Below, piece by piece: positions 28,303-45,209 of a DNA stretch of 64,000 bases. The position numbers and the translations under genes are program-made. The DNA is from an uncultured Alphaproteobacteria bacterium (GTDB lineage: Bacteria; Pseudomonadota; Alphaproteobacteria; HIMB59; GCA-002718135): positions 73,005 through 137,004 of the forward strand of contig CACNLM010000001.1 of assembly GCA_902621305.1 (NCBI GenBank). Direction: 5' to 3'. Position 1 is the stretch's first letter. Each line of letters opens with the position of its first letter. The notes beneath the pieces are model-generated. The model did not search any database. It saw nothing but the letters and a program-made list of their open reading frames with translations, and had not been told where the DNA came from.

Positions 28303-28772
28303 TGAAAATGATTATTGATGATTTTAAAGTGCCTATTATTAAAAAAGGTGTTTCATCAGTATCTTCATTAAAAAATGAATTTATAAATAAAAAAATTATT
28401 CTATTTGGTGTTCCGGGGGCATTCACGCCAACTTGTTCTGAGAAACATCTTCCAGGTTACATAAAATTATATAATTCATTTATAGATAAAAAAATTGATG
28501 GTATTTATTGTCTATCTGTAAATGATGAACATGTGATGAAATCTTGGTTAGTGAGTTATACAGAAGGAGAAATAATCAATGGAATTGCAGATGGAAATGC
28601 TGAGATTACAAAATATTTTGACTTGATATCTGATAAGACAAAAAATTATATGGGTTTTAGGTGTAGAAGGTTTGCGATGATAATTGAGAATAATGTGATT
28701 TTAAACAAATTTATTGAAAATGATGGCGAATACAATGTTAGTTCAGCTGAATATATTTTAAAACAAATCTAA
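28299..28772 (+). CDS. peroxiredoxin, Prx5-like (AhpC/TSA family)
   Basis: The motif GVPGAFTPTCS contains the peroxidatic Cys. The ATG overlaps the stop of the dsbD-like gene by 4 nt. Confidence 0.85.
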   Translation: MMKMIIDDFKVPIIKKGVSSVSSLKNEFINKKIILFGVPGAFTPTCSEKHLPGYIKLYNSFIDKKIDGIYCLSVNDEHVMKSWLVSYTEGEIINGIADGNAEITKYFDLISDKTKNYMGFRCRRFAMIIENNVILNKFIENDGEYNVSSAEYILKQI

Positions 28773-29509
28773 TGAATAAAATTAATTTAGAAAATAGAGT
28801 CGCAATTGTAACAGGTGGAGCACAAGGCTTTGGCTTAGCTATTACTAAAAGATTTATAGAGTCAGGTGCAAAAGTATTAATATGGGATAAAGATACAGAA
28901 TATTTAAATAAAGTTGATCTAAAAAATACTCAAAAAATTGAAGTTGATGTTTCAAATTATAAAAGTGTAGAGAATGCATTTGCTGAAAGTATTACATATG
29001 AAAACAAAATTGATATTTTAATAAATAATGCAGGAATAGCTGGACCAAACTTTAAGACATGGGATTACCCACTTGAGGAATGGCAAAAAGTTATAGACAT
29101 AGATCTAAGCGGAGTATTTTATTGCTGTAAAACTATAGTTCCTCATTTTATCAAAAATAATTATGGACGTATCGTTAATATTTCCTCGATAGCTGGTAAG
29201 GAAGGTAATCCTAACGCAATGCCTTATAGTGCAGCAAAAGCAGGAGTTATTGCACTTACTAAATCTTTAGGAAAAGAATTAGCTGAAAATAACATTTCAG
29301 TTAATTGTGTTACCCCTGCACCTGCTAAAACACGTATTTTTGATCAAATTACACAAGAACATATTGATTATATGTTATCAAAAATTCCGAGAAATAGATT
29401 TGTGCTAGTAGAAGAATTAGCCTCTTTAGTTGCTTGGATGTCCTCTGAAGAAAATTCTTACACCACAGGATCAACTTTTGATTTGAGTGGTGGTCGAGCT
29501 ACTTATTAA
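28772..29509 (+). CDS. SDR family oxidoreductase (FabG-like)
   Basis: It has TGGAQGFG (cofactor binding), NNAG and the catalytic YSAAK. Confidence 0.85.
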   Translation: MNKINLENRVAIVTGGAQGFGLAITKRFIESGAKVLIWDKDTEYLNKVDLKNTQKIEVDVSNYKSVENAFAESITYENKIDILINNAGIAGPNFKTWDYPLEEWQKVIDIDLSGVFYCCKTIVPHFIKNNYGRIVNISSIAGKEGNPNAMPYSAAKAGVIALTKSLGKELAENNISVNCVTPAPAKTRIFDQITQEHIDYMLSKIPRNRFVLVEELASLVAWMSSEENSYTTGSTFDLSGGRATY

Positions 29510-30483
29510 TTTTTTCTTCTTTGTATTAGGGCGTAAACTGTAACAGCTACTGTAATCATGAGTCCGTTAATAAATTTTACATAAAAACCAGATAAGCCTA
29601 AAGCAACTATTCCTGACTCTAATGAACCAATAATTAATACTCCTATAAAAGTTCCAAAAATAGTACCTTTGCCACCAAACACTGAAGTGCCACCAACAAA
29701 GACAGCTGCTAGTGTTGTTAACATTAAACCCTCACCTTGTGTAGGCCAGAAATATAACATTTCATACATTGTAAAAATTCCTGCTAAAGCAGAGAAAAAT
29801 CCTAGTTGAACAAAAGCAATAATTTTTACATTATCAACGTTAATTCCCATCATTTGGGCGCTTGCTTTGTTATCACCTACAAAGTGGATATGATTTCCAA
29901 ATTTATGGTATCGATAAACCCATTGCATCAATCCAGTTAATACAATGAACCAAATAAATTGCATTGGAATTTTTCCAAATAATTTTTCAACAAATATCAT
30001 ATGATGCCATGTTCCATCTGCTACATCAACGATTGCAATACCGCTACCTTGAGAAATTACATTAACTAATCCACGCCAAAAAAATAATGTACCTATAGTG
30101 GCAACTATTGAAGGTATGCCAATTTTAGTAACAAGTAATCCATTTATTAATCCCGCAAACATTCCAAGTGAAGTTGCCAAAATAAATGCTATAAAAAAAT
30201 TACCATCAGTCGATGTCATTATAATTCCAAATATGAGAGATGTAATTCCAACTATAGATGGAAATGATAAATCAATTTCACCAAGTGTAACAACAAATGT
30301 TGCTGATATAGCAATAATTCCAAAAAAAGGCATTGATTGCATAAAAGCTCTATAAATAGGAAATCTTGTAAATACATGTGGTGCACCAAGAAAATAAATT
30401 AGGAATAGTACTACAGCAATTATAGTAATACTAATTTCAAGTTTGTGAGTTTTTACAAAATAACTATTTAATAAATTATTCAT
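29506..30483 (-). CDS. carbohydrate-type ABC transporter permease (RbsC/branched BPD_transp_2 family)
   Basis: 325 aa, about ten TM segments with Gly-rich helices. It lies in an operon with a single-domain ATPase and a type-I periplasmic binding protein. Confidence 0.8.
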   Translation of the reverse strand: MNNLLNSYFVKTHKLEISITIIAVVLFLIYFLGAPHVFTRFPIYRAFMQSMPFFGIIAISATFVVTLGEIDLSFPSIVGITSLIFGIIMTSTDGNFFIAFILATSLGMFAGLINGLLVTKIGIPSIVATIGTLFFWRGLVNVISQGSGIAIVDVADGTWHHMIFVEKLFGKIPMQFIWFIVLTGLMQWVYRYHKFGNHIHFVGDNKASAQMMGINVDNVKIIAFVQLGFFSALAGIFTMYEMLYFWPTQGEGLMLTTLAAVFVGGTSVFGGKGTIFGTFIGVLIIGSLESGIVALGLSGFYVKFINGLMITVAVTVYALIQRRKN

Positions 30484-31251
30484 TTACTCTTCCACTTTTA
30501 TTTTTCCTGATTCATGAAGTTGAATCATTTTTTGAACAAGTTCTTCTCTTGTAATATCTTCTTTATTAAATTCCCCAACAACTTCACCTCTATCTAAAAT
30601 TATAAATCTATCTGCAGCACCATATACGTGTATTATATTATGATCGATAAATATTGCAGATTTGTTTTCATTTTTTAAACCTTTTACAAAATTAAGAACT
30701 TTTTCTGTTTCTTGTATCGATAATCCCATTGTTGGTTCATCTAATACGATTAAATCAGAATTAAAATACAATGATCTACCGAAAGCTACACCTTGTTTTT
30801 CGCCACCAGAAAGACCCATTACATGAGAGTCAACTGTTATAGCTTTTGAAGTAAAACCTATATAGTCGCGTAAAATTTTTTCTGCTTCTTTTCTTTGTTT
30901 TTTTATATCCAAAAAACCAAATGAATTTGTAATTTCTCTTCCTGCAAAGATATTTCTGTATAATTCTTGCTGATCACATAATGCTCTTTCTTGATATACT
31001 GCTTCAATTCCCATTTTTCTTGATTGTGCAACTGATTTAATTTGTACCTCTTTTTCTTTAAAAAAAACTTTTCCCGAGTTTGGGCTATGAACTCCAGTTA
31101 TAACTTTAATAAGTGTAGATTTTCCAGCTCCGTTATCACCGATTAAAGCTACCACTTCACCTTTATTTATTTTGATATTCACATCTTTTAAAACTTTTAC
31201 GTTTCCAAAGTTTTTGTAAATATTTTGTAATTTTAAGAGTTCTTCAGCCAT
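30484..31251 (-). CDS. ABC transporter ATP-binding protein (single ABC domain, sugar type)
   Basis: It has Walker A GDNGAGKST, signature LSGGEKQ and Walker B LIVLDEPT. Confidence 0.9.
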   Translation of the reverse strand: MAEELLKLQNIYKNFGNVKVLKDVNIKINKGEVVALIGDNGAGKSTLIKVITGVHSPNSGKVFFKEKEVQIKSVAQSRKMGIEAVYQERALCDQQELYRNIFAGREITNSFGFLDIKKQRKEAEKILRDYIGFTSKAITVDSHVMGLSGGEKQGVAFGRSLYFNSDLIVLDEPTMGLSIQETEKVLNFVKGLKNENKSAIFIDHNIIHVYGAADRFIILDRGEVVGEFNKEDITREELVQKMIQLHESGKIKVEE

Positions 31252-31259
31252 AAAAAATA

Positions 31260-31286
31260 AACCTGCCTTATGTAATAAGGCAGGTT
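31260..31286 (-). terminator. intra-operon stem-loop plus U-tract between the binding-protein gene and the ATPase gene
   Basis: The minus-strand RNA reads AACCUGCCUUA-UUACA-UAAGGCAGGUU (11-bp stem) followed by UAUUUUUU, and then the ATPase ATG. It sits 13 nt after the SBP stop. Confidence 0.65.
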
Positions 31287-31298
31287 ATAATATTTAAT

Positions 31299-32279
31299 TT
31301 ATCTGATTTGTACTGCTGCTAATGGAGCAACAGCATCAACGTTATCAGCTGTAACAAATGCAGCACCAGTATCCATTGCTAATCCAGCCATTCCATATTT
31401 TGTACTTAGGAATAACTGAACAATTGGCATATATCCTTGGATAAATGGTTGTTGATCAATTACAACATCAATGTATCCAGAATTAATTCCATCAACAATT
31501 GGAGCTGATAAATCAAATCCAGCACCACATACTTCTTCAGTACCGTGACCTGCAGCCTTCATATATGTTGGTAAGCTTGCAGTTAATCCACCATGATCTG
31601 TAATAGCCATTTTGATATCAGGATTTGCACTATAAGTAGCAACGTACATAGGAGTTCCCTGAGATGCATCTGAGTTTACGTTATCAGGAATTTCTTGATA
31701 AACTACCTCAACACCTGCTGCTTCAACACCAGCTATTGCACCTTTAGTTCTTTCTCCTCTATTTGGCATACTTGCAAGACCCCAGATAAATGCTTTATCT
31801 CCAGCTTGTAGACCACAAACTTCAACAGCTTTTTTACCTAGATTAAATCCAGCATCGAATAGATCTGCTCCTGCATAACCAAATCCTTCAGTTTTATATT
31901 CTGATTCAAGATCAGGAAGAGGAGTGTTCATAGTAGTAATTACTATTCCCATTTCTCTAGCTTCTTGAATGATAGGTCTCATTGCAGCGTCACCAGGAAA
32001 ACCATAGATTGCAATTCCATCAGGTTGTAAAGCAACAGCTTCTTTAAATTGTTTAATCATGATTTCTGAGTTCCACTGTGACCAGTAGTAATCTACTTCA
32101 CAACCAGTGTGTTCAGCAGCAGCTACTGCACCATTGTAAACGATAGTTCCAAATGGGCCACCTTCAGGACCACCTGGAAAAAATATAAATTTTTTATCAC
32201 AGCTGTAATCATTTTTTGCTATTGCTGAAGTAGATGCAAAAGCAAAAAATAAAGCAATGACAGCAAAGATTTTTTTCAT
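31299..32279 (-). CDS. sugar/cyclitol-type ABC transporter periplasmic substrate-binding protein (RbsB-like, PBP type I)
   Basis: A signal peptide (MKKIFAVIALFFAFASTSAIA) is followed by a two-lobe PBP pattern. I chose ATG 32279 because GGAGG lies 5 nt upstream. Confidence 0.8.
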   Translation of the reverse strand: MKKIFAVIALFFAFASTSAIAKNDYSCDKKFIFFPGGPEGGPFGTIVYNGAVAAAEHTGCEVDYYWSQWNSEIMIKQFKEAVALQPDGIAIYGFPGDAAMRPIIQEAREMGIVITTMNTPLPDLESEYKTEGFGYAGADLFDAGFNLGKKAVEVCGLQAGDKAFIWGLASMPNRGERTKGAIAGVEAAGVEVVYQEIPDNVNSDASQGTPMYVATYSANPDIKMAITDHGGLTASLPTYMKAAGHGTEEVCGAGFDLSAPIVDGINSGYIDVVIDQQPFIQGYMPIVQLFLSTKYGMAGLAMDTGAAFVTADNVDAVAPLAAVQIR

Positions 32280-32469
32280 AATTCCTCCAAATAATTTATG
32301 CATTAATTTATAAGTAAATAAATCAATAATACAATTAAATTAAAGTATTAAAGATCTTATTACAAATTAAATTCTCCTTTCCTTTGATAGATAAAATAGT
32401 CGCACTTATTTACCAATTTAAAGCAATTTTTATATTTATAAGATTATCAAAAAGTGCTATTTTTTCTTT

Positions 32470-33456
32470 ATGGATGTTGATTTAGGTAAATGGTATCGAG
32501 CAAATATTGATAAAAAAGAATTCAAGCAGTTATGCAAGAAATCTGATTGGCAGGGTTTTAAGCATATGATTATTTATTTTTCATCTCTATTTCTCTTTGG
32601 ATATCTAGCGTATTTCACTTGGGGTACCTGGTGGTCATTATTATTTTTTATAATTTACGGAAATATTTGGGGATGCAGCGATGCTATATGGCATGAAACT
32701 GGTCACAGAACTGCTTTTAAATCTAAATTTTGGAATGATTTCTTTTATTATATTGCTAGTTTTATGGATAATTTTGAACCTATCAGATGGAGATATTCTC
32801 ACTATCATCATCATACTTATACTCAATTTAATGATCCTGTAGATTTTGAAATACATGTAAAAAAACCAACTGACTTAATTGTGTTTTTCTCACATTACAT
32901 TCCATTCTCTGGTTTTATTTTCTTTAAAAATTCTCTTCAATGGGAAACTATAAAACATGCATTTGGTGTAACTACTGATGTAATGAAAGTTTGTATTCCA
33001 AAAAATGAAAGATGGAAATGTAGATTATCTGCGTGGAGTCATCTTTCTATTTGGATAATTAGTATAGCTTCTTCAGTTTACTTTCAAAGTTGGCTTCCAG
33101 TTCTATACGTTTTATTGCCTAATTTTTATGGAAAGACGCTTGTTATGCTTATGGGTCTTACTCAACACGCAGGACTTAGAGAAGATAAAAGAGATCATAG
33201 GTATACAACTAGAACAGTATATTTAAATCCAGTTTTAAGTTTTTTATATTGGCATATGGAATATCATGTTGAGCACCATATGTTCCCCCAAGTTCCCTCA
33301 CATAATTTACCTAAGCTGCATGCTATGATTAAAGATCAATTACCACCTGCCAGAAAAGGTCTTCTTGGGGCTTATAAAGAAATTATTCCAGCACTCATAA
33401 AACAAGCAAAAAATCCTGACTATCAAATTCCATTATCTGTTCCAAGCAACGCTTAG
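32470..33456 (+). CDS. membrane di-iron oxygenase of the fatty-acid-desaturase fold (MocD/AlkB-like), paralog 1
   Basis: 328 aa with His boxes HETGH, HYHHH and HVEHH, plus QHAG, and hydrophobic hairpins. It is followed by its own ferredoxin reductase and Rieske ferredoxin. Confidence 0.8.
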   Translation: MDVDLGKWYRANIDKKEFKQLCKKSDWQGFKHMIIYFSSLFLFGYLAYFTWGTWWSLLFFIIYGNIWGCSDAIWHETGHRTAFKSKFWNDFFYYIASFMDNFEPIRWRYSHYHHHTYTQFNDPVDFEIHVKKPTDLIVFFSHYIPFSGFIFFKNSLQWETIKHAFGVTTDVMKVCIPKNERWKCRLSAWSHLSIWIISIASSVYFQSWLPVLYVLLPNFYGKTLVMLMGLTQHAGLREDKRDHRYTTRTVYLNPVLSFLYWHMEYHVEHHMFPQVPSHNLPKLHAMIKDQLPPARKGLLGAYKEIIPALIKQAKNPDYQIPLSVPSNA

Positions 33457-33461
33457 ACTGA

Positions 33462-34691
33462 GTGAAAAATAACATTATAATTTTAGGTGGTGGTCAAGCC
33501 GGAATCTATGCTGCTAGAGAGATCAGACAAAATGATTCAAAATTAAATATTAAAATTTTAAGTGAAGAAAATTTATTACCATACGAAAGACCTCCTTTAT
33601 CTAAAGATTTTTTGCTAGATAAAAAAAAAGAAGAAGATCTTTATTTTCATTCTAGCGACGTACTAAAAAATGAAAATATAGAATTTGAAAATATATCAAT
33701 TAATAAAGTTGATTTTGAAAATAAAAAACTTTTTGCAAAAAATGATAATGTTTACTCTTATGATAGTTTGCTTATTTCAACAGGTTCTGAAAATAAAAAA
33801 CTTACTTTAGATAATAATTTGAAGAATGACATTTATTATCTAAGAAATTTAGAAGAAGCCAAAAAAATTAAAGAAATAGTTTCAAATAAAAATAAAATAA
33901 CAATTATTGGAGGTGGTTTCATTGGCTTAGAAATTGCCTCATCTTTATCTCAGCTTCAAAAGAAAGTAATTGTTATTGAAATTGGTAATCAACTTATGGG
34001 AAGAATTATACCCAAACAAATTGCTGATTTAGTTCAAAACACTCATATAGAACATGGAAATGAAATAATATTAAATAAACAGATAGAAAAAATAACTAAA
34101 AAAAATGGCGATTATGAAATTTTATTAAATGATAATTCTTTAATAGAAACAGATTTTATAATTGCAGGTATAGGCTCAACCCCGACTGTAAAGTTATTTG
34201 AAAATACAAATTTAAAGCTTGATAATGGTATTGTAACTAATCAATTTTGTGAAACTTCTATTAAAGATGTTTATGCAGCAGGTGATGTATCTAATTTTTA
34301 TCATCCATTCTATGAAAGAAATATGCGACTCGAGTCTTATCAACATGCGCAAAATCATGGAATATGTGCTGGAAAAAATATTGCTGGAGTAAAAACAGAA
34401 TACACTTCAATTCCTTGGATGTGGTCTGATCAATTTAATTTGAATCTTCAACTGACTGGTATTTGTAATGATTATGATGAAATCATTGAAAGAGGTAATG
34501 ATATTAATAATGGTGTAATTTATTTTTTTCTAAAAAATAAAATAATAAGAGGTGCATGTGGTCTAGGAATTGCAGGAAAAATTGGTCGCGACATTAGAAT
34601 TACTTCTAAATTAAGTGAAAAAAATACCATTGTAGATAAACAAATTCTCTCAGATCAAAATCTAAAATTAAATAAACTTATACAAAAATAA
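33462..34691 (+). CDS. FAD-dependent NAD(P)H:ferredoxin reductase (pyridine nucleotide-disulfide oxidoreductase family)
   Basis: 409 aa with the FAD site ILGGGQAG, the NAD site IIGGGFIGLE and AAGDV. The C-terminal dimerisation domain is typical of Rieske or putidaredoxin reductases. Confidence 0.85.
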   Translation: MKNNIIILGGGQAGIYAAREIRQNDSKLNIKILSEENLLPYERPPLSKDFLLDKKKEEDLYFHSSDVLKNENIEFENISINKVDFENKKLFAKNDNVYSYDSLLISTGSENKKLTLDNNLKNDIYYLRNLEEAKKIKEIVSNKNKITIIGGGFIGLEIASSLSQLQKKVIVIEIGNQLMGRIIPKQIADLVQNTHIEHGNEIILNKQIEKITKKNGDYEILLNDNSLIETDFIIAGIGSTPTVKLFENTNLKLDNGIVTNQFCETSIKDVYAAGDVSNFYHPFYERNMRLESYQHAQNHGICAGKNIAGVKTEYTSIPWMWSDQFNLNLQLTGICNDYDEIIERGNDINNGVIYFFLKNKIIRGACGLGIAGKIGRDIRITSKLSEKNTIVDKQILSDQNLKLNKLIQK

Positions 34692-34743
34692 CAATTTAAT
34701 TATTTTGTATTTATTTTCATAAAATAGCTATTATATACAATTT

Positions 34744-35061
34744 ATGTCTGAAGAAAATTGGATTGAAGTAGGGTCTACAGATAGTATTGAAGAAGAGGAT
34801 CTCATAAGATTTGACCATCAAGATAAAACTTTTTGTGTGTATAAGCTAACAGATGGTTTTTATGCTACTGATGGAATTTGTACACACGAGGCGGTACACC
34901 TTGAAGATGGTTTGGTTATGGATGATGAAATTGAATGTCCAATGCACCAAGGAATTTTTAATATTAAATCTGGTGAAGCCTTAAGCCCCCCAGCGTGTGA
35001 GGATTTAAAAACATACCCAGTTAAAGTTGATAATGACAAAATTTTCATTAAGATAAATTAA
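34744..35061 (+). CDS. Rieske [2Fe-2S] ferredoxin
   Basis: 105 aa with a CTH-x16-CPMH cluster-binding motif. Its size is that of a stand-alone oxygenase ferredoxin component. Confidence 0.9.
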   Translation: MSEENWIEVGSTDSIEEEDLIRFDHQDKTFCVYKLTDGFYATDGICTHEAVHLEDGLVMDDEIECPMHQGIFNIKSGEALSPPACEDLKTYPVKVDNDKIFIKIN

Positions 35062-35080
35062 ATATTCTTTTGGAGGTTTT

Positions 35081-35908
35081 ATGAGTAGAAAAAAACTTAC
35101 AGTTTACGATTATTTGCAATGTAAAGGTAAAAGACAACTAAGTGTTATGTTTGTACATAATGCTGACGAAGCTGCAGCAGCTGAAGAGGCTGGCATTGAC
35201 ATGATTTGTACTTCTCATGATGCTCCACAATTTGGTATTTACAATTCTTTTGATGAGCTTAAGCGAATTCGCGAGGCTGCACCAACTTGCTTTATGCAAT
35301 CCGGAGGGGCAGTAAGAGTAGCTTCTGAATACGAAGCAATGAAACTATCACACAAGTATTTAGATATTGGCGCAGATGTTATCTATGGTGGTAATTGGAG
35401 TTACAAATGGATTAGAGCATTAAGAGATGAGTATGTTCCAATTAATAGTCATGTTGGATTAGTTCCAGGAAATGCTACTTGGATTGGAGGATTCGTTGCA
35501 CAAGGTAAAACTGCTGATAAAGCCGTTAGAATTTTAGAACATACTCTTGAGTTACAAGAAGCGGGGGCTATCGGAGTTGAACTCGAAGTAGTTCCTCCAA
35601 AAGTTGCAGAAGTTATTACAAAAAAAGTTGATATCATGACTCTCTCAATGGGAAGTGGTTCTGGATGTGATGGGCAATATTTATTTGCTAATGATGTACT
35701 CGGATATACCCAAGGAAAAATTCCAAGACATGCGCGAATTTATAGAGATTTTAAAAAAGAATTTGCAAAATTACAAGCTGAAAGAGTAAGTGCATTCAAA
35801 GAGTTTCACGATGATACGGTAAACAAAAAATTTAATGATCCTAAAATCACAGTTAACATTGATGAAAGTGAATTTGAAAAATTTTTAAAGCTTTCAGAAA
35901 AATTTTGA
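35081..35908 (+). CDS. PanB-like protein (ketopantoate hydroxymethyltransferase fold, divergent)
   Basis: 275 aa. The C-terminal half matches PanB blocks (SHVGLVPG, ELEVVP, GSGSGCDGQ, IPRHAR). The N-terminal motifs look substituted by eye. A GGAGG RBS is present. Confidence 0.6.
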   Translation: MSRKKLTVYDYLQCKGKRQLSVMFVHNADEAAAAEEAGIDMICTSHDAPQFGIYNSFDELKRIREAAPTCFMQSGGAVRVASEYEAMKLSHKYLDIGADVIYGGNWSYKWIRALRDEYVPINSHVGLVPGNATWIGGFVAQGKTADKAVRILEHTLELQEAGAIGVELEVVPPKVAEVITKKVDIMTLSMGSGSGCDGQYLFANDVLGYTQGKIPRHARIYRDFKKEFAKLQAERVSAFKEFHDDTVNKKFNDPKITVNIDESEFEKFLKLSEKF

Positions 35909-35911
35909 TTA

Positions 35912-36928
35912 ATGTTTGCGGGCGAAGTTGATTTAAAAACTTGGTATAAACCAAAAATTGATAAGAAAACTTTAAAGGAACTTTCTAAGAGATCTGATAC
36001 AAAAGGTTTATTAGATATATCCATATTTATTGTTGCTCTAATATTAAGTGGATATCTGTGTATTCTAAGTTGGGGTACTTTATGGTCAATACCTGCTCTT
36101 TTGCTTTATGGAAATATTTTCTATTGTAAAATCATAAGCATTCAACATGAAACAAATCACGAAACATATTTTAAAACAAGAGCGTTAAATAAACTTTTTT
36201 ATCATATAACTTCTTTACTCGGTGGTTTTGAAGCAGTTAGATGGAAGTGGAGTCATTTTCATCACCATACTTATACTATATTTACACATCAGGAGGTGTA
36301 CGACTACGAAAATAATAGTCCTAAACCAACAGAACCTGTTAGGTTTCTTTTAAATTTTTTACCTCTTGGTCCAATAATTAATATTCAAAAAATAAGACAT
36401 TTTACACATTTTGAAATTATTAAACATTCATTTGGAATAATTACTCCTGTTGTAAAAGTTACTGTACCTGAAAAGGAGATCAAAAAAATTATTAATAGTT
36501 CCAGGTTATATTTAGGTTTTTGGTTACTTGTAATTTTTTCCTCAGTTTTCTTACAATCATGGTTACCAATCATAATGATAATTCTACCCCCATTTTATGG
36601 GAATACTATATTGATGATTTGTGGCATGACTCAACATGCTGGACTAGCTGATAATATTAAAGATCATAGAAAAAGTACAAGAACCGTTATTATGAATCCC
36701 TTTTTTAGTTTTTTGTATTCAAACATGGAGTATCATATTGAGCATCATATTTTCCCAAAAATCCCATGCCATAATTTAAAAAAATTTCACAAAATAGTTA
36801 AAAATCAAATGCCAGAACCTCATAACGGAATAATTTCTGCTTATAGATCAATAATCCCAGCAATATTTAAGCAATCTAAAGATAAAAATTATTTTATTGA
36901 TGTGAAGGTTCCAGATACGACAATTTAG
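35912..36928 (+). CDS. membrane di-iron oxygenase of the fatty-acid-desaturase fold, paralog 2
   Basis: 338 aa and alignable end to end with the 32470 gene. Its His boxes are HETNH, HFHHH and HIEHH, and it shares FLQSWLP, GMTQHAGL, DHR.STRTV and IIPAIFKQSK. Confidence 0.8.
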   Translation: MFAGEVDLKTWYKPKIDKKTLKELSKRSDTKGLLDISIFIVALILSGYLCILSWGTLWSIPALLLYGNIFYCKIISIQHETNHETYFKTRALNKLFYHITSLLGGFEAVRWKWSHFHHHTYTIFTHQEVYDYENNSPKPTEPVRFLLNFLPLGPIINIQKIRHFTHFEIIKHSFGIITPVVKVTVPEKEIKKIINSSRLYLGFWLLVIFSSVFLQSWLPIIMIILPPFYGNTILMICGMTQHAGLADNIKDHRKSTRTVIMNPFFSFLYSNMEYHIEHHIFPKIPCHNLKKFHKIVKNQMPEPHNGIISAYRSIIPAIFKQSKDKNYFIDVKVPDTTI

Positions 36929-36966
36929 TCTCTTTTTTTTTATTCAAAATATACTATAAATACATC

Positions 36967-37971
36967 ATGGGAAATCAACTAAATGATAGTGATTTTGGTA
37001 CAAGAGATAAAAGAGGTCATTGGAAACCATTTGGTACAATAAGTATTAATCCACCTAAAGATATATTTTTTAACCCAATTAAATTTTTGAAGTATTTTTT
37101 TAAATTTCCGGGAATTTTTTTCCCATGGACCTTTGTCTTTGCAGCAATAACAGTTGCTACATATCTTTTTTTGACTCCTTCTTTAGAGACAATGAAGACT
37201 TTTGAAATAGGATGGATATCCTATATTTTTTTTAGAAACTCAGTTATTATTTTGCTTTGGACAGGCTTCTTTCATTTAAGACTAAAGACACAAGGAACTT
37301 CATTTAAATATAACCCACGACCTCTAGAAAAAAATAACTCAACTTTTTTATTTAATGATCAGACTAAAGACAACCTATTCTATACTTTTTGTAGTGCTAT
37401 TCCATTATGGACAGCTTATGAAGTAATTACATTTTGGGCATTTGCAAATCAAATAATCCCATATGTAAGCTGGGAAGCTTATCCGATATATTGTTGTTTT
37501 ATGTTCTTTCTTGTTCCATTTATAAGAGACGCACATTTTTACTTAACTCATAGATTATTACACTGGGCACCACTTTATAAAATTGCGCATAAAGTTCATC
37601 ACCGTAATACAAATACAGGTGCTTGGTCAGGTATGTCTATGCATCCAATAGAGCATATACTCTATTTTTCAGGAATCTTAGTTCATTGGATAATTCCTTC
37701 ACATCCTCTTGTTGCGATGTATCATGTATTTCATGCTGGTTTAGCACCTACACCTGGACATACTGGATATGAAAAAATGACTTTTAAAAATGGTGTATCA
37801 ATCCCAACAGGTGATTATATGCATTATATTCATCACAAATATTTTGAATGCAATTACTCAGGCGGAAATACTAGTTTCTTAGATAAATTAATGGGTACGT
37901 TCCATGATGGATCTGAAGAAGCAACCAAAGAAGTAATGGCTCGTATCAAAGATAAAGCCCATTACCTCTAA
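36967..37971 (+). CDS. fatty acid hydroxylase / sterol desaturase superfamily membrane oxygenase
   Basis: 334 aa with His boxes HFYLTH(RLLH), HKVHH(RN) and HYIHHKYF, and four or more TM segments. Confidence 0.75.
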   Translation: MGNQLNDSDFGTRDKRGHWKPFGTISINPPKDIFFNPIKFLKYFFKFPGIFFPWTFVFAAITVATYLFLTPSLETMKTFEIGWISYIFFRNSVIILLWTGFFHLRLKTQGTSFKYNPRPLEKNNSTFLFNDQTKDNLFYTFCSAIPLWTAYEVITFWAFANQIIPYVSWEAYPIYCCFMFFLVPFIRDAHFYLTHRLLHWAPLYKIAHKVHHRNTNTGAWSGMSMHPIEHILYFSGILVHWIIPSHPLVAMYHVFHAGLAPTPGHTGYEKMTFKNGVSIPTGDYMHYIHHKYFECNYSGGNTSFLDKLMGTFHDGSEEATKEVMARIKDKAHYL

Positions 37972-38015
37972 ACTTATCTTCATAAATTTTTAATTTTATT
38001 ATAATGATCTAAAAT

Positions 38016-38891
38016 ATGAGTAAGGTTGAATTATATAAAGATGTAAAAAATAGTTTGGGAGAGGGTATTACTTGGTCTTCAATTGACCAAAGTTTATTTT
38101 GGGTAGATATTAAACCAAAATCAGTTTTATTCAGAATTAATTTAGATAACGAAAAATTAGAAACTTTTGACTTACCCGATTTTGTAACAGCGACGTCAAT
38201 AATCTCAAAGAATGAAATTGCTTTAGTCTCAAATAATGGGGTAAATAAATTTAACTTTCAATCTAAAAAATACGAAAGAATAATTAATGTTGAAGATGAT
38301 ATTTTAACAAATAGATCTAATGATGGTGCATCTGACGTTAGGGGCAGGCTTTGGTTTGGCACTATGCAAAATAATTTTAATCAAGATGGAAGTGCAAAAT
38401 CTTTAAATGCTAAATCTGGAAGTTTATATTGTTTATCTGATAATAAGGTAAATATTGTTGAAACAAATCTTGGTATACCTAATACATTTGTTTGGAGTCC
38501 AGATAACACGAAATTTTATTTTGCCGATACAACTGAGGGATCATTACTAGAATACAATTTTAACCTAGACGAAGGTAGTTTGTCAGATAAAAAAAACTTC
38601 TTCGATTTTGATAGAGGTGCTCCAGATGGATCAACTATTGATAGTGATGGTTTTATTTGGAATTGTCGTTGGGGTGGATCATGTATAGTGAGAATTGATC
38701 CTAAAGGAAGAATGGATAAAATCTATGAGCTACCTGTTGAAAATGTAACTAATTGTGTATTTGGAGGAAGTGATCTTAAAACTTTATTTATTACAAGTGC
38801 AGCAAATTCAGGTAAAAATCAACATGATGGTAGTCTATTTGCATTAAATGTTAATGTGCCTGGGCTTGAAGATAATAAATTTAAAATTTGA
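38016..38891 (+). CDS. SMP-30/gluconolactonase/LRE family lactonase
   Basis: 291 aa with LGEGITW, NDG..D..GR.WFGTM, PDG...D..G and a six-blade propeller repeat pattern. Confidence 0.85.
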   Translation: MSKVELYKDVKNSLGEGITWSSIDQSLFWVDIKPKSVLFRINLDNEKLETFDLPDFVTATSIISKNEIALVSNNGVNKFNFQSKKYERIINVEDDILTNRSNDGASDVRGRLWFGTMQNNFNQDGSAKSLNAKSGSLYCLSDNKVNIVETNLGIPNTFVWSPDNTKFYFADTTEGSLLEYNFNLDEGSLSDKKNFFDFDRGAPDGSTIDSDGFIWNCRWGGSCIVRIDPKGRMDKIYELPVENVTNCVFGGSDLKTLFITSAANSGKNQHDGSLFALNVNVPGLEDNKFKI

Positions 38892-38923
38892 TTTTTTACT
38901 TTAATTAGCTAAAACTTTCACAC

Positions 38924-40657
38924 ATGAATAAAAAAAATAAATTTAGATCTTCTAATTGGTATAATTCTAAATCACATCGAAGAGATACATTTATTCATAG
39001 AGGCTGGATGAGAAATCAAGGTCATCCAAATCATTTATTTGATGGCCGTCCTGTAATTGGTATTTGTAATACATGGTCAGAATTAACTCCTTGTAATGGT
39101 CATTTCAGAGAGATAGCAGAGTCTGTTAAAAAAGGTGTTTATGAAGCTGGCGGTTTTCCTCTTGAATTTCCTGTTTTTTCAGCAAGTGAATCCAACTTAA
39201 GACCTACTGCTATGTTGTTTAGAAATTTAGCAAGTATGGATGTTGAAGAGGCAATAAGGGGTAATCCTATAGACGGAGTCGTACTATTAATGGGGTGTGA
39301 TAAAACAACACCTTCATTAATGATGGGAGCTGCAAGTGTCGATCTTCCTACAATAGGTGTTTCAGGTGGCCCAATGCTTAATGGACATCATCAAGGAGAA
39401 CAAATTGGTTCTGGAACTGGTGTTTGGAAACTTGATGCTGATTTAAATGCAGGTGAAATTACAGAAGAAGATTTTATTAATGCAGAAATTTCAATGAGTA
39501 GATCAAAAGGAAATTGTATGACAATGGGGACTGCTTCAACAATGGGTTCAATGGTAGAAGCATTAGGAATGTCACTTCCTGGAAATGCCGCAATACCCGC
39601 AGTGGACTCCAGAAGATATGCTTTAGCACATATGTCTGGAAAAAGAATTGTTGAAATGGTCAAGGAAGATATAACAATGTCAAAAATTGTTACAAAAAAA
39701 TCATTTGAAAATGCGATTAAAGTAAATGGAGCAATAGGTGGATCTACGAATGCAGTTATCCACTTAGCTGCAATTGCAGGTCGAATGGAAATTGATTTAG
39801 ATTTAGATGATTGGAATAAATGCGGAGATGGCATTCCAACATTAGTAAATCTCCAACCTTCAGGAAAATACTTAATGGAAGATTTTTATTATGCAGGTGG
39901 TGTACCTGTAGTCATAAAAAGATTAATGGAAAAAAAATTACTAGATGAAAATTCAATGACTGTTAATGGAAAAACAATAGCTGAAAATAATTTAAACGCT
40001 AAATGTTGGAATAATGATGTTATAAAAGAATTTGAAAATCCATTAACCAAAAATGGAGGAATTAAAATTCTTAGAGGCAATATAGCTCCAAATGGTGCAA
40101 TTATTAAGCCATCAGCTGCTTCACCAAAATTAATGAAACATACTGGAAAAGCGGTAGTTTTTGAAAGTGTGGAAGAGTTTCATGAAAAGATTGATGATCC
40201 CAATTTAGACGTTGATGAAAATTCCATATTAGTTTTAAAGAATTGTGGTCCAAAAGGTTATCCTGGTATGGCTGAAGTAGGAAATATGCGTCTTCCACAA
40301 AAAGTTCTTAAAAAAGGTGTGAGAGATATGATTAGAATATCTGACGCTAGAATGAGTGGAACAGCATACGGTACCGTAATACTTCATACATCTCCAGAAG
40401 CTGCAGTTAAAGGTCCTTTAGCAGCAGTTCAAAATGGTGATGAAATAGAAGTAGATGTTGATCAGGGTATAATGAATTTAAAAGTTAATGATGAAACAAT
40501 AAAAAATCGTCTAGAAAATTATTCACCTGTTGTCCCAGAAATAACAGGTGGTTATCAAAAAATGTATGTAGAGCATGTTATGCAAGCTGACAAAGGAGCA
40601 GATTTAGATTTTCTAATTGGAAAAAGAGGAGCTGAAGTCAAAAGACATAGTCATTAA
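38924..40657 (+). CDS. IlvD/Edd family dehydratase (context suggests an aldonate/sugar-acid dehydratase)
   Basis: 577 aa with the Fe-S ligand region GCDKTTPS, then CMTMGTAST, GGSTNAV.HL and SDARMSG. Confidence 0.85.
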   Translation: MNKKNKFRSSNWYNSKSHRRDTFIHRGWMRNQGHPNHLFDGRPVIGICNTWSELTPCNGHFREIAESVKKGVYEAGGFPLEFPVFSASESNLRPTAMLFRNLASMDVEEAIRGNPIDGVVLLMGCDKTTPSLMMGAASVDLPTIGVSGGPMLNGHHQGEQIGSGTGVWKLDADLNAGEITEEDFINAEISMSRSKGNCMTMGTASTMGSMVEALGMSLPGNAAIPAVDSRRYALAHMSGKRIVEMVKEDITMSKIVTKKSFENAIKVNGAIGGSTNAVIHLAAIAGRMEIDLDLDDWNKCGDGIPTLVNLQPSGKYLMEDFYYAGGVPVVIKRLMEKKLLDENSMTVNGKTIAENNLNAKCWNNDVIKEFENPLTKNGGIKILRGNIAPNGAIIKPSAASPKLMKHTGKAVVFESVEEFHEKIDDPNLDVDENSILVLKNCGPKGYPGMAEVGNMRLPQKVLKKGVRDMIRISDARMSGTAYGTVILHTSPEAAVKGPLAAVQNGDEIEVDVDQGIMNLKVNDETIKNRLENYSPVVPEITGGYQKMYVEHVMQADKGADLDFLIGKRGAEVKRHSH

Positions 40658-40676
40658 TTAAAAATTATTAAAATAG

Positions 40677-41726
40677 ATGAATAACAATTTTAATCCTTTG
40701 TCTGCTGAAGAATTAACTTCAAGAATAAATAAAATTCCTAGAGTTAATCTAGCTCAATTACCTACTGTACTTGAATTTGCACCTAATATTTCTAAAGAGT
40801 TGGGTATAAATCTTTATATCAAACGAGATGATTGCACTGCATTAGCTTTTGGGGGAAACAAAACAAGACATTTAGAGTTTATAATGGCTAAAACATTATC
40901 AGGAGATTATGACTGTATTTTAACTGGGGCTGCATCTCAATCTAATTTTTGCCGCCAAGCTGTAGCTGCTGCAAATAAACTAAATTTAGATAGTTATTTA
41001 GTATTAATGCATGGAATAAAAGGTAACTTAATGCAAGGTAATTTTTTATTATATAATATTCTGGGAGCTAATGTTGATGTTATTGATGGTGAGAATTTAG
41101 AAGAAATACCAAAGCATTTAGATATAAAATATAATGAGTTAATAAAAGAAGGTCGAAAACCTCTATTAATTTATGGAGGTTTTGGTAAAGAGGATACCAC
41201 TCTTGCTGGTATAAGTTATGCAAATGCTATGGCTGAAATTGATTTACAAATGAAAGAGCAAAATTTTATGGCAGATCATCTATTTGTTACTGCTGCTAAT
41301 ATGACACAAGCAGGTTGTGAATTAGGAGCTAAGATATTAAATTGGCCAACTCGTATTCAAGGTATTTCTCCTGTTTATTGGGAAATGAATATTAAAAAAG
41401 ATATTGCGAGAATATGTAATGATGCAGCAAAGATGCTTGATATTAATTTAGAGTTTTCACATAAAATGATTAATCATGACAATAATTATGTAGGTAAAAA
41501 ATATGGTGCGACTACAGAAGACGGAATAAAAGCAACAAAACTTTTAGCTAATAAAGAGGGAATTATTTTAGATCCAGTTTATACATCAAAAGGTTTTGCA
41601 GCTTTAATTGATTATGTTGAAAAAGGAATCATTAAGAGAGGTGAAAACGTCATTTTTATATTCACTGGTGGTAGTCCGGCAGTTTTTGCATATAACGATG
41701 AAATTGCAAATAATTCTACTCAATAA
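40677..41726 (+). CDS. PLP-dependent enzyme of the ACC deaminase / D-cysteine desulfhydrase family
   Basis: 349 aa with the PLP lysine motif FGGNKTRHLEF. It has the fold-type II pattern and a C-terminal FTGG. Confidence 0.8.
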   Translation: MNNNFNPLSAEELTSRINKIPRVNLAQLPTVLEFAPNISKELGINLYIKRDDCTALAFGGNKTRHLEFIMAKTLSGDYDCILTGAASQSNFCRQAVAAANKLNLDSYLVLMHGIKGNLMQGNFLLYNILGANVDVIDGENLEEIPKHLDIKYNELIKEGRKPLLIYGGFGKEDTTLAGISYANAMAEIDLQMKEQNFMADHLFVTAANMTQAGCELGAKILNWPTRIQGISPVYWEMNIKKDIARICNDAAKMLDINLEFSHKMINHDNNYVGKKYGATTEDGIKATKLLANKEGIILDPVYTSKGFAALIDYVEKGIIKRGENVIFIFTGGSPAVFAYNDEIANNSTQ

Positions 41727-42900
41727 TTTCAAATTTATCTAAATATTTATTTGATAACTTAATACCTAATCCATGTTTATTTTCATCTAATTCGATAAAA
41801 CCATTTTTTGCTTGAGGTTCGCCATCAAAAATATACCAAAATAATTCATTGCCAATTTCTACAGGCCAAAAAGGAAAATACTCAACTATTGGAGCGTTTA
41901 CTGAACTCATAGAAATATGAAAATTATGAACTTGTCCTGCGTGAGGAATAACTGGTATTTGAAATGCTTCAGCTAAAGCAGAAATTTTATGCGCCTGTGT
42001 TATACCACCAACTCTATTCGTATCAAATTGCACAACATCAATTGCTTTTTTTTCTAGTAATTGTCTAAAACCAAAAAGTGTATATTCATGTTCACCACCA
42101 GATATAGGAGTTCTACATGAGGCTTTTAGATTTGCATAACCATCAATATCATCAGCAATAACTGGTTCTTCTAACCAACGAAGATTTTCATTATCAATTA
42201 ATCGCATCATTCTTTTTGCATACTCAAATGTCCATCCCATATATACATCTGCCATAAGATCAACATTATCACCAACAACTGATCGCACTGTTTTGATTAA
42301 CTCAATATTTTTATGCATACCCTCAGCACCATCAGTGGGACCCCAACCAAGTCTTAATTTCATTGCTTTAAAACCTTGATCAACATAATCCTTAGCTTCT
42401 TTTGCAAGACTATCAAGAGGTTGACTATAAAGCTTACTTGCATAACAGGGGAGTTTTGATTTAGTTTTTCCACCTAATAATTTGAATACGGGTTGTTTAG
42501 CAGATTTTCCAAGTGCATCCCATATTGCAATATCAACAGCACTAATAGCTGTCATACCTACACCTTTTCTCCCCCAAGCAAGTGTTTGGCGATACATCTT
42601 TTGCCATATATGCTCATAATCCCATATACTTTCACCAATAATGGCTGGAGCTAGGTAAGTATCTACAACTGATTTACATGGTTCTGGGGATAATGCAGCA
42701 TTACCTAAACCTATCAAACCATCACTTGTTTCTACCTCAACAACTAACCAGCTATGAAATTTATATGTTGTCCATCTATCATTTGAAATATTTTCTTGAT
42801 TCACAATATCTGCAGCATTTGTGCAAAAATTTTCATGAATTTTTTGAACGGGCCCTGTCCATTTATAGACCTTTGCTTTAACACTTACAATTTTACTCAC
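41716..42900 (-). CDS. enolase-superfamily acid-sugar dehydratase (mandelate racemase/muconate lactonizing family, rhamnonate/fuconate-dehydratase-like)
   Basis: 394 aa with a capping domain and a TIM barrel carrying the metal ligands DVYMGW, LEEP and SGGEH. The overall layout resembles L-rhamnonate dehydratase. Confidence 0.8.
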   Translation of the reverse strand: MSKIVSVKAKVYKWTGPVQKIHENFCTNAADIVNQENISNDRWTTYKFHSWLVVEVETSDGLIGLGNAALSPEPCKSVVDTYLAPAIIGESIWDYEHIWQKMYRQTLAWGRKGVGMTAISAVDIAIWDALGKSAKQPVFKLLGGKTKSKLPCYASKLYSQPLDSLAKEAKDYVDQGFKAMKLRLGWGPTDGAEGMHKNIELIKTVRSVVGDNVDLMADVYMGWTFEYAKRMMRLIDNENLRWLEEPVIADDIDGYANLKASCRTPISGGEHEYTLFGFRQLLEKKAIDVVQFDTNRVGGITQAHKISALAEAFQIPVIPHAGQVHNFHISMSSVNAPIVEYFPFWPVEIGNELFWYIFDGEPQAKNGFIELDENKHGLGIKLSNKYLDKFEIIE

Positions 42901-42949
42901 AAAATAATTATTATACTAATTTAAATCAATTTAAGAGAAATTTTTAATA

Positions 42950-43927
42950 TTAAGATAAGAGTTTAAGTAATAACTTTAAAGATTCTAACGTCGGACTTAC
43001 ATTAGCTTTATTTTTACCCACAATATCAAAAGCTGTTCCATGAGCAGGCGTAGTTATAGGTATTGGCAGACCACCTTGAACAGTAACACCTTTTTCAAAT
43101 CCAAACGATTTAAGACCTGATTGTATGGCGTCATGATACATTCCGACAAGACAATTATACTCCTTATTTTTATAAGCTTTAATAAATGATGTATCACATG
43201 GTAATGGGCCAAAAACTTTGATTTTCATTTTTCTTGCTTTGTTTATTGCAGGAATTATTATTTTTTTCTCTTCATTTCCAAACTCAGCGTGAGGATTTAA
43301 AGCTTGAACACCTACTTTTGGATTTTTTAGTCCATTTTTTTTTAAATACTTATTAACTAACTTAATTGGTTCAAGAATATTTTTAATAGTGATATTTTTT
43401 GCAACATCTTTAAGGGGAATATGTGAAGTTACTCTAGCAGTCCAAAAATTATTTAATACATTAAGTTCACAAACGTAGCTTTTTATTTTAAATTTATTTT
43501 TAAAATAATGGAGCTCATCCTTAAATTTCATACCAGCAAGATCTAAACTTGTTTTATTAAACGGAGCAAAATTAATTCCATCTATTTTTTTCTTATTATA
43601 TAAATCAACCGCTATATCGATAGAATTTAAAACAGATATTCCTGATTTTATATTTGCTTTTCCAATTGGATATCTTACTTTTCTTTTAGTAATATCAAAG
43701 AAAATTTTACTAGTACTTTTAAATTCTATCTGATCAAAATTATTAATAAACTTAATATTTTTTTTATTTTTTTGTTTTGTTAAATGTCCATCAAATACAG
43801 ATTTTTCTCCAATAATTACAATATTTATTTTTTTTAAAATATTATGAGATAGAATTTTAGAAATTAATTCAGGACCAATTCCAGATGGATCACCTAAAAG
43901 AACAGCTATACTTTTTTTATTTCTCAT
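42950..43927 (-). CDS. PdxA family NAD-dependent dehydrogenase (4-hydroxythreonine-4-phosphate dehydrogenase-like)
   Basis: 325 aa with the N-terminal GDPSGIGPE, a central NPHAGE-like NPHAEFG, and YHD and PAHGTAFDI. Confidence 0.8.
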   Translation of the reverse strand: MRNKKSIAVLLGDPSGIGPELISKILSHNILKKINIVIIGEKSVFDGHLTKQKNKKNIKFINNFDQIEFKSTSKIFFDITKRKVRYPIGKANIKSGISVLNSIDIAVDLYNKKKIDGINFAPFNKTSLDLAGMKFKDELHYFKNKFKIKSYVCELNVLNNFWTARVTSHIPLKDVAKNITIKNILEPIKLVNKYLKKNGLKNPKVGVQALNPHAEFGNEEKKIIIPAINKARKMKIKVFGPLPCDTSFIKAYKNKEYNCLVGMYHDAIQSGLKSFGFEKGVTVQGGLPIPITTPAHGTAFDIVGKNKANVSPTLESLKLLLKLLS

Positions 43928-44835: not shown

Positions 44836-44912
44836 TTATATTTTTTATAGAATTGAATTTTATCTATAAGTTTATAAAATTAATACATATAATTTATTTG
44901 AAAAGAGGTATT

Positions 44913-45209
44913 ATGAATTATGCATGGATTCTTGAAATCCGATCAGGATATGAGGAAGAATATAAAAAGAGACACGATGAAATTTGGCCAGAAATGGTTC
45001 AAATGCTTAAAGAAGCTGGATTGCGAAATTATAATATTTTTAGATATGGATTAAAATTATTTGGATATTTTGAAACTGATGATTTTAAAAAATCCATTAA
45101 CTTTATATCTAAAAGCGAAATTAATAAAAAATGGTCTAAATATATGGAGCCCATAATGAAAGTAGATATTGATCCGAAAACAAATTTTCCATACTTGTTG
45201 CCATTATAA
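44913..45209 (+). CDS. L-rhamnose mutarotase family protein
   Basis: 98 aa with EEYKKRHDEIWPEM...AGLRNYNIF and KWSKYMEP. I chose ATG 44913 because an AGAGG RBS precedes it. The upstream part of the ORF is AT-rich and looks non-coding. Confidence 0.8.
   Translation: MNYAWILEIRSGYEEEYKKRHDEIWPEMVQMLKEAGLRNYNIFRYGLKLFGYFETDDFKKSINFISKSEINKKWSKYMEPIMKVDIDPKTNFPYLLPL

Follow-up and report, generated by a model that had tools for sequence, protein, structure and literature searches.

A PanB-fold protein family without the PanB metal and 2-oxoacid ligands, encoded beside oxygenases in SAR11 bacteria and rhizobia: a candidate for folate-dependent one-carbon transfer

The open reading frame at positions 35,081 to 35,908 of a 64,000-nucleotide stretch of DNA from an uncultured alphaproteobacterium (NCBI GenBank assembly GCA_902621305.1, contig CACNLM010000001.1, positions 73,005 to 137,004; the whole stretch is hereafter called the window) codes for a protein related to ketopantoate hydroxymethyltransferase (PanB). 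The protein belongs to an uncharacterised sister family of PanB, hereafter called PanBL, which databases label PanB. Members of this family lack the residues with which PanB holds its metal and its 2-oxoacid substrate, and their genes are mostly found next to genes for oxygen-dependent oxygenases, in clusters for the breakdown of sugars and inositol. The reading favoured here, that PanBL removes or captures an oxidised methyl carbon in a folate-dependent manner, is considered to have an even chance of being correct.

The predicted amino acid sequence of the window protein is matched by the Pfam PanB family (PF02548) over residues 82-251 only, with a score of 130.9 bits, which passes the cut-off. 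It fails both NCBIfam PanB models, scoring less than half of each cut-off (PRK00311, 118.6 against 272 bits; TIGR00222, 103 against 207.55 bits), and has no Pfam match to the HpcH/HpaI family. A model of the protein made with AlphaFold2 (AF2) from 28 diverse homologs had a mean predicted local distance difference test score (pLDDT) of 93.2, and the best 28 matches of this model in a Foldseek comparison with the PDB were all PanB structures (3VAV, 1M3U, 1O66/1O68, 1OY0, 3EZ4), with E values of 4e-19 to 6e-14 and template modelling (TM) scores of about 0.7. The predicted fold is that of the PanB triose phosphate isomerase (TIM) barrel, and the ketopantoate hydroxymethyltransferase fold named in a preliminary description of the sequence is upheld by the model and by the PanB matches. 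Public records give the divergent family the name 3-methyl-2-oxobutanoate hydroxymethyltransferase (PanB). One protein of the representative library (P0123, 542 amino acids) consists of two PanBL domains in tandem, with two PF02548 stretches and 311 bits. Fusion partners were considered as a clue to function and found uninformative, being limited to a tandem PanBL-PanBL protein, proteins extended at the N-terminus and probable chimeras with ALAD or DUF4349.

To compare active-site residues, 61 divergent proteins were aligned with 14 PanB sequences of canonical type, among them E. coli PanB and the canonical copy from the source genome (one-letter codes follow E. coli numbering, three-letter codes the window protein). 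D45, D84 and E114 are taken to be the Mg2+ ligands of E. coli PanB and K112 and S46 to bind the 2-oxoacid carboxylate, while E181 is presumed, from the 1M3U structure, to be the acid/base beside the transferred hydroxymethyl group; the conservation of D45, D84, E114, K112 and E181 in the canonical-type sequences is consistent with these roles. D45, of the VGDS motif, is Asp in 13 of the 14 canonical-type sequences and in none of the 61. At D84, of the ADLP motif, Asp is found in 11 of 14 and again in none of the divergent proteins, which have Gly (44), Ala (10) or Ser (4). K112 is Lys in 13 of 14 and never in PanBL, where Tyr predominates (52/61), and E114, Glu in 11 of 14, is mostly Ala, Ser or Gly in PanBL, with no Glu listed. 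The ligand positions of the metal site are thereby held by Gly, Ala, Ser, Pro or Tyr, and the S46 position is variable. H136 and E181 (His124 and Glu169), each present in 13 of the 14 canonical-type sequences, are kept in all 61 divergent proteins, as are D209, D217, G203, G205, G138 and P141; Q211 is kept in 43. Two further residues are invariant in all 61 members and only there, namely His217 (E. coli F229) and Glu167 (E. coli V179), of which Glu167 stands two positions ahead of the catalytic Glu on strand beta6; together with Tyr102 and Arg216, the latter present in 57 of 61, they are family-specific.

Because all four ligands of the Mg2+/2-oxoacid site are replaced in the whole family, while H136, E181, D209, D217, G203 and G205 are kept in all its members, PanBL has lost the half of the PanB site that handles the ketoacid and has kept the half around the transferred one-carbon (C1) unit, on strands beta5-beta8, with the catalytic Glu and a His. 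The preliminary description had already pointed to the replacement of the N-terminal motifs that carry the metal ligands, and this applies to all 61 members. The C-terminal blocks it listed (SHVGLVPG, ELEVVP, GSGSGCDGQ and IPRHAR) were all found as described. Its change of IEGG to IYGG is approximately right; there is in addition a deletion of two residues, and Tyr102 falls at K112 or at E114 depending on the alignment.

In a maximum-likelihood tree the PanBL proteins form one clade with 100/100 support, on a branch of 1.37 from canonical PanB. Scores of a family profile in 401 Pseudomonadota genomes were bimodal, with 274-362 bits in 18 genomes, all of Alphaproteobacteria, and at most 198 bits elsewhere. 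In a survey of Pelagibacterales, matches at the PanBL level (E ≤ 1e-65) were present in 131 of 150 genomes and in 67 of the 68 from the genus of the window, with up to 6-7 copies per genome of about 1.5 Mb and up to 6 in the genomes G411 and G421. The ratio dN/dS of the window gene was about 0.03 against its G411 ortholog and about 0.08 against its G405 ortholog, with dS saturated in these comparisons; the gene is under strong purifying selection and is not decaying.

The source assembly, from a SAR11-type genome (1.45 Mb, 87 % complete), contains three PF02548 matches, of 257 bits for a canonical panB on contig C10, 125 bits for the window gene and 132 bits for a divergent paralog on contig C8. 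The canonical gene (C10:27127-27858; L001 1480-2265, minus strand) has the VGDS, D84 (DMP), K-I-E, SHIG and LECV motifs. The product of the window gene is not the pantothenate PanB of the cell; the doubt about a pantothenate role voiced in the preliminary description is confirmed by the missing metal and 2-oxoacid ligands and by the canonical panB elsewhere in the genome. The same description had proposed looking for a second, canonical panB next to panC; the gene was found, and panC is not adjacent to it. It lies between dxs and a beta-carbonic-anhydrase-like gene. A regular-expression scan of the 87 %-complete genome for the PanC HxGH signature, which is not a rigorous test and was made with no Pfam search for panC, gave no match. 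The genome encodes FolD and Fhs, and so is able to use 5,10-methylene-tetrahydrofolate (THF stands hereafter for tetrahydrofolate). The second PanBL paralog (C8:71948-72706) is 45 % identical to the window protein and belongs to an operon (L004 7846-10770) in which it follows genes for a PhyH-family Fe(II)/2-oxoglutarate (Fe/2OG) dioxygenase and an alpha-galactosidase of glycoside hydrolase family 4 (GH4; PRK15076, 584 bits). A second GH4 gene and an Opp-type ATP-binding cassette (ABC) transporter, divergently transcribed, lie next to this operon, the substrate of which may be a methylated alpha-galactoside.

Neighbourhoods of PanBL genes in other genomes were typed in 20-kb stretches by tblastn with the proteins of the window, and annotated plasmid records were added. 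The tie to oxygenases suggested in the preliminary description is real and is conserved well beyond the operon of the window: in SAR11, Rhizobiaceae, Rhodobacterales and other groups, a component of an O2-dependent oxygenase is encoded no more than 2.5 kb from 35 of 38 PanBL genes, usually on the same strand and often with a spacing of 10-80 nt. The partners are di-iron enzymes of the MocD type or the sterol-desaturase type, the Rieske ferredoxin MocE, a reductase, or PhyH-type Fe/2OG dioxygenases. In family f13, from large alphaproteobacterial genomes which are probably Rhizobiaceae, PanBL follows a desaturase-type oxygenase, a Rieske protein and in some cases a reductase, or else an FA_hydroxylase-type oxygenase directly. 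The module of rhizobia and Rhodobacterales has the order LacI - MocD - MocE - (MocF) - PanBL. On plasmid pRL11 of Rhizobium johnstonii 3841 it consists of a LacI regulator, a 'fatty acid desaturase family protein', a 'MocE family 2Fe-2S ferredoxin', an FAD oxidoreductase and PanBL (RL_RS32880), annotated in the record as PanB with the Gene Ontology (GO) term for pantothenate (GO:0015940, RefSeq). On an Aestuarium plasmid the module adjoins an ABC system with a 'rhizopine-binding protein' and genes of inositol catabolism, namely inositol 2-dehydrogenase (iolG), 5-dehydro-2-deoxygluconokinase and a decyclising acylhydrolase. The order on pSymB of Sinorhizobium meliloti 2011 is MocD-like, MocE-like, reductase, PanBL. 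In strain 1021 mocD, mocE and mocF are SMb20818-20820 and the LacI regulator is SMb20817 (PMC11387232), and from these locus tags and the gene order in strain 2011 PanBL (SMb20821) is the next gene after mocDEF in strain 1021 as well. No paper on a divergent PanB family or on SMb20821 was found in the literature. Plasmid records with tblastn matches numbered 279 at the PanBL level and 277 at the MocD level, with nearly identical counts for Rhizobium, Sinorhizobium and Ensifer.

In SAR11, some loci have nearly one PanBL per oxygenase. Genome G411 has two tandem PanBL genes flanked by three PhyH-family genes, and in its operon orthologous to that of the window the second desaturase-type gene is separated from the FA_hydroxylase-type gene by an additional PanBL. 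Genomic islands of about 90-130 kb in SAR11 genomes of the window's genus or family (G411, G421 and G405) carry, in the stretches examined, up to 6 PanBL and some 10 di-iron oxygenase genes; their PanBL genes are located at 47-180 kb of G411 contig C1 and 237-327 kb of G421 contig C1, and several sugar ABC systems are present. Taken over the whole family, the partners of PanBL are oxygenases of three folds unrelated to one another (FA_desaturase, FA_hydroxylase and PhyH Fe/2OG), and the PanBL tree shows at least 13 changes of partner label when all labels are counted. The number of folds and of changes points to shared chemistry and not to one fixed protein complex, and three unrelated folds favour a role tied to a product they have in common, a C1 unit at the formaldehyde level.

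Two loops at the former 2-oxoacid site bear on the question of specificity. Among 116 orthologs of the window protein (identity 83-99 %), the loop in the place of VGDS (residues 43-56) has an entropy of 0.153 and the loop in the place of ADLP one of 0.215, both more conserved than the protein as a whole (mean 0.299), whereas between PanBL paralogs the same segments, at 2.36 and 2.80, are more variable than the mean of 1.90. Since the loops vary from paralog to paralog but little among orthologs, and since streamlined genomes keep many paralogs, each PanBL may recognise its own co-substrate (a hemiacetal, a hydroxymethyl-ketose or an inosose) or its own oxygenase.

In the window PanBL is the fourth gene of a same-strand array of nine, at 32470-41726 (Table 1). 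It starts 19 nt past the Rieske ferredoxin gene and its stop codon lies 3 nt before a desaturase-family gene, which agrees with the spacing given in the preliminary description. No pantothenate gene lies in the operon or nearby. The Peripla_BP_4 binding protein of the divergent transporter has as its sole NCBIfam match the rhizopine substrate-binding protein model, at 83 bits against a cut-off of 420. The gene for the short-chain dehydrogenase/reductase (SDR) has the same position in the orthologous locus of G411 and adjoins the IlvD gene in G421.

Table 1 PanBL and neighbouring genes in the window
Feature	Position	Strand	Remarks
SDR-family dehydrogenase	28772..29509	+	convergent with the permease gene
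Sugar-type ABC transporter (Peripla_BP_4 binding protein, ATPase, BPD_transp_2 permease)	29506..32303	-	divergent from the array
MocD-like membrane-type di-iron oxygenase 1	32470..33456	+	Pfam FA_desaturase; His boxes HETGH, HYHHH, HMEYH..HH
FAD/NAD(P)H ferredoxin reductase, MocF-like	33462..34691	+	Pyr_redox_2 and Reductase_C
Rieske [2Fe-2S] ferredoxin, MocE-type	34744..35061	+	TIGR02377, 136.0 bits against a cut-off of 136.15
PanBL (PanB-fold protein without the PanB Mg2+/2-oxoacid ligands)	35081..35908	+	275 amino acids, open frame
MocD-like di-iron oxygenase 2	35912..36928	+	FA_desaturase; HETNH, HFHHH, HIEHH
Di-iron oxygenase 3, sterol-desaturase/FA_hydroxylase family	36967..37971	+	
SMP-30/gluconolactonase-family lactonase	38016..38891	+	
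IlvD/Edd-family sugar-acid dehydratase	38924..40657	+	PRK06131, 919 bits; L-arabinonate dehydratase model, 842 against a cut-off of 882
Pyridoxal phosphate (PLP) enzyme, 1-aminocyclopropane-1-carboxylate (ACC) deaminase / D-cysteine desulfhydrase / CuyA family	40677..41726	+	

The PLP enzyme at the end of the array has as its nearest relatives the D-cysteate sulfo-lyase CuyA (267 bits, cut-off 450) and the D-cysteine desulfhydrase family; in a sugar operon its role may concern an amino- or sulfo-sugar acid. Adjacent divergent units, at 41716-46289, encode an L-rhamnonate-dehydratase-like enzyme of the enolase superfamily, a PdxA-family dehydrogenase, an L-fucono-lactonase-like amidohydrolase, an L-rhamnose-mutarotase-like protein and a Gfo/Idh/MocA dehydrogenase, all below equivalog cut-offs; as judged from these family matches, the units resemble an oxidative route for 6-deoxyhexoses.

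PanB moves a carbon at the formaldehyde level between 5,10-methylene-THF and the enolate of a Mg-bound 2-oxoacid. Hydroxylation of a methyl ether gives a hemiacetal, which releases formaldehyde, and hydroxylation of a C-methyl group gives a hydroxymethyl group, which can be lost by retro-aldol cleavage once a neighbouring carbonyl is made. The MocDEF step of rhizobia, in the model of Bahar and co-workers, is said to be an O-demethylation of rhizopine (3-O-methyl-scyllo-inosamine). In the operon of the window, the MocF-like reductase and the MocE-like Rieske ferredoxin would supply electrons to the two MocD-type oxygenases and the one of the sterol-desaturase type, which would hydroxylate an O-methyl or C-methyl group of an imported sugar or cyclitol. 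PanBL would then take the formaldehyde-level carbon, as a hemiacetal, as freed formaldehyde or as a C-hydroxymethyl group beside a carbonyl, and pass it to THF. The resulting 5,10-methylene-THF would be oxidised via FolD and Fhs or spent on biosynthesis, and the demethylated sugar would proceed via the lactonase and the IlvD-type dehydratase. In this scheme we infer that PanBL binds folate and transfers C1 units, and also the nature of the substrate and its demethylation by the oxygenases.

E. coli PanB accepts free formaldehyde as a C1 donor (PMC7611260), and an enzyme for the formaldehyde-THF step would be useful because the uncatalysed reaction is too slow in vivo for effective assimilation (PMC7073904). 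The published model of MocDEF, as cited in PMC5789663, is a ferredoxin-oxygenase complex that feeds the inositol pathway (Bahar 1998), and induction of mocDEF homologs by pinitol-rich root exudate has been described (PMC5789663). Both roles named in the preliminary description, retro-aldol or C1-transfer chemistry on an oxygenase product and capture of formaldehyde on folate, are possible for PanBL. A classical metal-dependent retro-aldol reaction on a 2-oxoacid is unsupported, the Mg and carboxylate ligands being gone. The more specific version, in which PanBL is a dedicated folate-dependent C1 catcher on the PanB barrel that passes carbon from a methyl-oxidising oxygenase (di-iron or Fe/2OG) directly to THF, with each paralog tuned to a substrate or oxygenase of its own, is put forward tentatively, as somewhat short of an even prospect.

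Several observations weigh against C1 transfer to folate. To our knowledge, O-demethylation by MocD-type enzymes is a published model with no demonstrated activity behind it. It is only by inference that the retained half of the PanB site is equated with the folate half, no complex of PanB with folate being among the PDB matches. The several paralogs in a streamlined genome and the pattern of the loops argue against a purely generic ligase of formaldehyde and THF, and GFA-family genes are found in the source genome, so that a glutathione route for formaldehyde may coexist. In Burkholderiaceae, LacI - MocD - MocE(-reductase) modules beside inositol genes have no PanBL within 7 kb (records AP028202.1, NZ_CP091015.1 and NZ_CP054613.1, which comprise Paraburkholderia and Burkholderia plasmids and, outside that family, a record labelled Paenibacillus), which makes PanBL an accessory that the oxygenase does not need. 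The P0148-like subclade, most of which comes from metagenome contigs (one with the label Chloroflexota), is often free-standing, and 5 of 7 contexts have no link to an oxygenase. Where an operon is present in this subclade, it is in one case LacI - FA_desaturase - PanBL and in another (L077) LacI - HIBADH-like dehydrogenase - AP_endonuc_2 TIM barrel - PanBL, the latter having no called oxygenase within 6 kb.

As regards the wider surroundings of these loci, the MocD-MocE module in Burkholderia adjoins iolG and TIM-barrel genes. A 797-amino-acid fusion of DUF1989 and GCV_T is encoded a few kb from the PanBL operon of L077, and the neighbours of free-standing P0148-like genes include TonB/ExbBD genes or genes of the PSCyt/PSD1/DUF1501 families.

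The L077 context, in which PanBL follows a dehydrogenase and AP_endonuc_2 and no oxygenase was called, is among the points in favour of a different kind of enzyme, a folate-independent isomerase, tautomerase, epimerase or lyase acting on a non-C1 product of the oxygenase, such as an oxidised or hydroxylated cyclitol or sugar. Such an enzyme would use Glu167, Glu169, His124, His217 and Tyr102 as acid/base groups, and it would suit the new invariant polar residues Glu167 and His217, the presence of several paralogs per genome, and loops that are conserved in orthologs and variable across paralogs, as expected of determinants of substrate specificity. A single product-specific chemistry is made less likely, however, by the association with three unrelated oxygenase families and with substrate clusters as different as inositol, alpha-galactosidase and sugar-acid genes, and the residues kept from PanB sit near the transferred hydroxymethyl group, as is presumed for E181; this explanation is judged unlikely, yet serious enough to be kept in view. 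The loss of the canonical catalytic metal site could also mean that PanBL is not a catalyst at all but serves as a scaffold, as a subunit for coupling or regulation, or as a pseudoenzyme by which the oxygenase/Rieske system is stabilised or tuned, and the tight adjacency to Rieske, reductase or oxygenase genes, with a PanBL:oxygenase ratio near 1:1 in some SAR11 loci, fits this proposal. The invariance of Glu169, His124, Asp197 and Asp205 and the new fixation of Glu167 and His217 in all 61 members look instead like an active or ligand-binding site. The three partner folds include soluble PhyH enzymes that need no ferredoxin, the Burkholderiaceae modules do without PanBL, and stand-alone members exist, so a non-catalytic accessory is regarded as improbable.

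The lactonase and the IlvD-family dehydratase downstream in the operon of the window raise the further prospect of a 2-oxoacid aldolase that ends a sugar-acid route by cleaving the 2-keto-3-deoxy acid from the dehydratase. PanB shares its barrel superfamily with the class II 2-oxoacid aldolases, which counts for this proposal, as does the report that E. coli PanB is a metal-dependent aldolase with formaldehyde (PMC7611260). Against it, none of the 61 members has the Asp/Asp/Glu metal ligands or the Lys that binds the carboxylate, and in the rhizobial and Rhodobacterales loci, where the oxygenase components are constant, no homolog of the dehydratase or lactonase was found beside PanBL. The sugar-acid aldolase was rejected on these two grounds, the missing metal site and the lack of conserved dehydratase and lactonase neighbours, and is considered very improbable. 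An ordinary or alternative ketopantoate hydroxymethyltransferase working in pantothenate synthesis is suggested by the database name and by the PF02548 score above cut-off, and genomes of other phyla that have a stand-alone member might in principle possess no other PanB-like gene. Both NCBIfam PanB scores are below cut-off, the metal and substrate ligands are all replaced, the same genome has a canonical panB, and the context is catabolic with no pantothenate gene nearby; the canonical PanB reading was rejected and is hardly credible. The annotation 'pantothenate biosynthesis' (GO:0015940) is very probably wrong for the whole PanBL family.

No bacterial group of the surface ocean is more abundant than SAR11, a known oxidiser of methyl groups through folate. 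The PanBL proteins of the 131 Pelagibacterales genomes all carry the label 'PanB', and a family so labelled would leave models of marine carbon and C1 flux with a blind spot. If the folate-dependent role is correct, PanBL would be the first stand-alone enzyme family known for transfer of formaldehyde or a hydroxymethyl group to THF in the service of oxygenase-type demethylases, and it would represent a major overlooked entry of carbon from methyl-sugars and methyl-cyclitols into the C1 metabolism of SAR11. PanBL, which comes after mocDEF in genetically tractable rhizobia (S. meliloti 1021 and R. johnstonii 3841), may explain the use of methylated inositols such as pinitol or rhizopine without release of free formaldehyde. 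A catalyst of formaldehyde-THF condensation would also interest synthetic methylotrophy, because the spontaneous condensation is too slow in vivo (PMC7073904).

Among characterised systems, PanB itself (EC 2.1.2.11) shares with PanBL the TIM barrel, a sequence that can be aligned over most of its length, E181, H136, D209, D217 and the glycine-rich motif of strand beta7. PanBL differs in the replacement of D45, D84, K112 and E114, in a deletion of about 20 residues after strand beta2 in most members, in an insertion of 7 residues after the PRHAK motif, in the newly conserved Glu167, His217 and Arg216, in forming a separate clade and in its contexts, which are linked to oxygenases and not to pantothenate genes. 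From the class II 2-oxoacid aldolases (HpcH/HpaI, YfaU) it is set apart by the lack of the divalent-metal site positions and of a match to their Pfam family. The rhizopine MocDEF system of Sinorhizobium and Rhizobium resembles the window in having a membrane di-iron oxygenase, a Rieske ferredoxin (that of the window being near the MocE cut-off) and a reductase, and in S. meliloti 1021 and R. johnstonii 3841 PanBL directly follows the mocDEF-type genes under a LacI-family regulator. The window differs in its three oxygenases, in sugar-acid enzymes downstream in place of iol genes and in a binding protein that is only distantly related to that for rhizopine. The Moc-system literature found in the search names no PanB-like component.

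In the GcvT-type folate modules, such as those of the dimethylglycine and sarcosine dehydrogenases, the trimethylamine N-oxide (TMAO) demethylase Tdm, DmdA and LigM, the carbon of demethylation is trapped on THF as 5,10-methylene-THF, each demethylase having its own folate module. The logic of folate trapping proposed for PanBL would be the same, whereas PanBL has another fold, no sequence similarity (Pfam PF02548 only), a separate polypeptide and putative folate binding. A further precedent is offered by the pathway for alpha-aminoisobutyric acid (Aib) in Rhodococcus, in which an alpha-methylserine hydroxymethyltransferase reportedly removes the newly formed hydroxymethyl group in a THF-dependent reaction. 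The Aib hydroxylase comprises a di-iron oxygenase, a Rieske ferredoxin and a reductase, which together hydroxylate an inert methyl group, and the pathway includes a hydroxymethyltransferase step (PMC7782822). The Rhodococcus pathway differs from the system proposed here in its amidohydrolase-like di-iron enzyme, its PLP enzyme similar to serine hydroxymethyltransferase and its amino-acid substrate, and has in common with it the hydroxylation of a methyl group by a di-iron/Rieske/reductase system.

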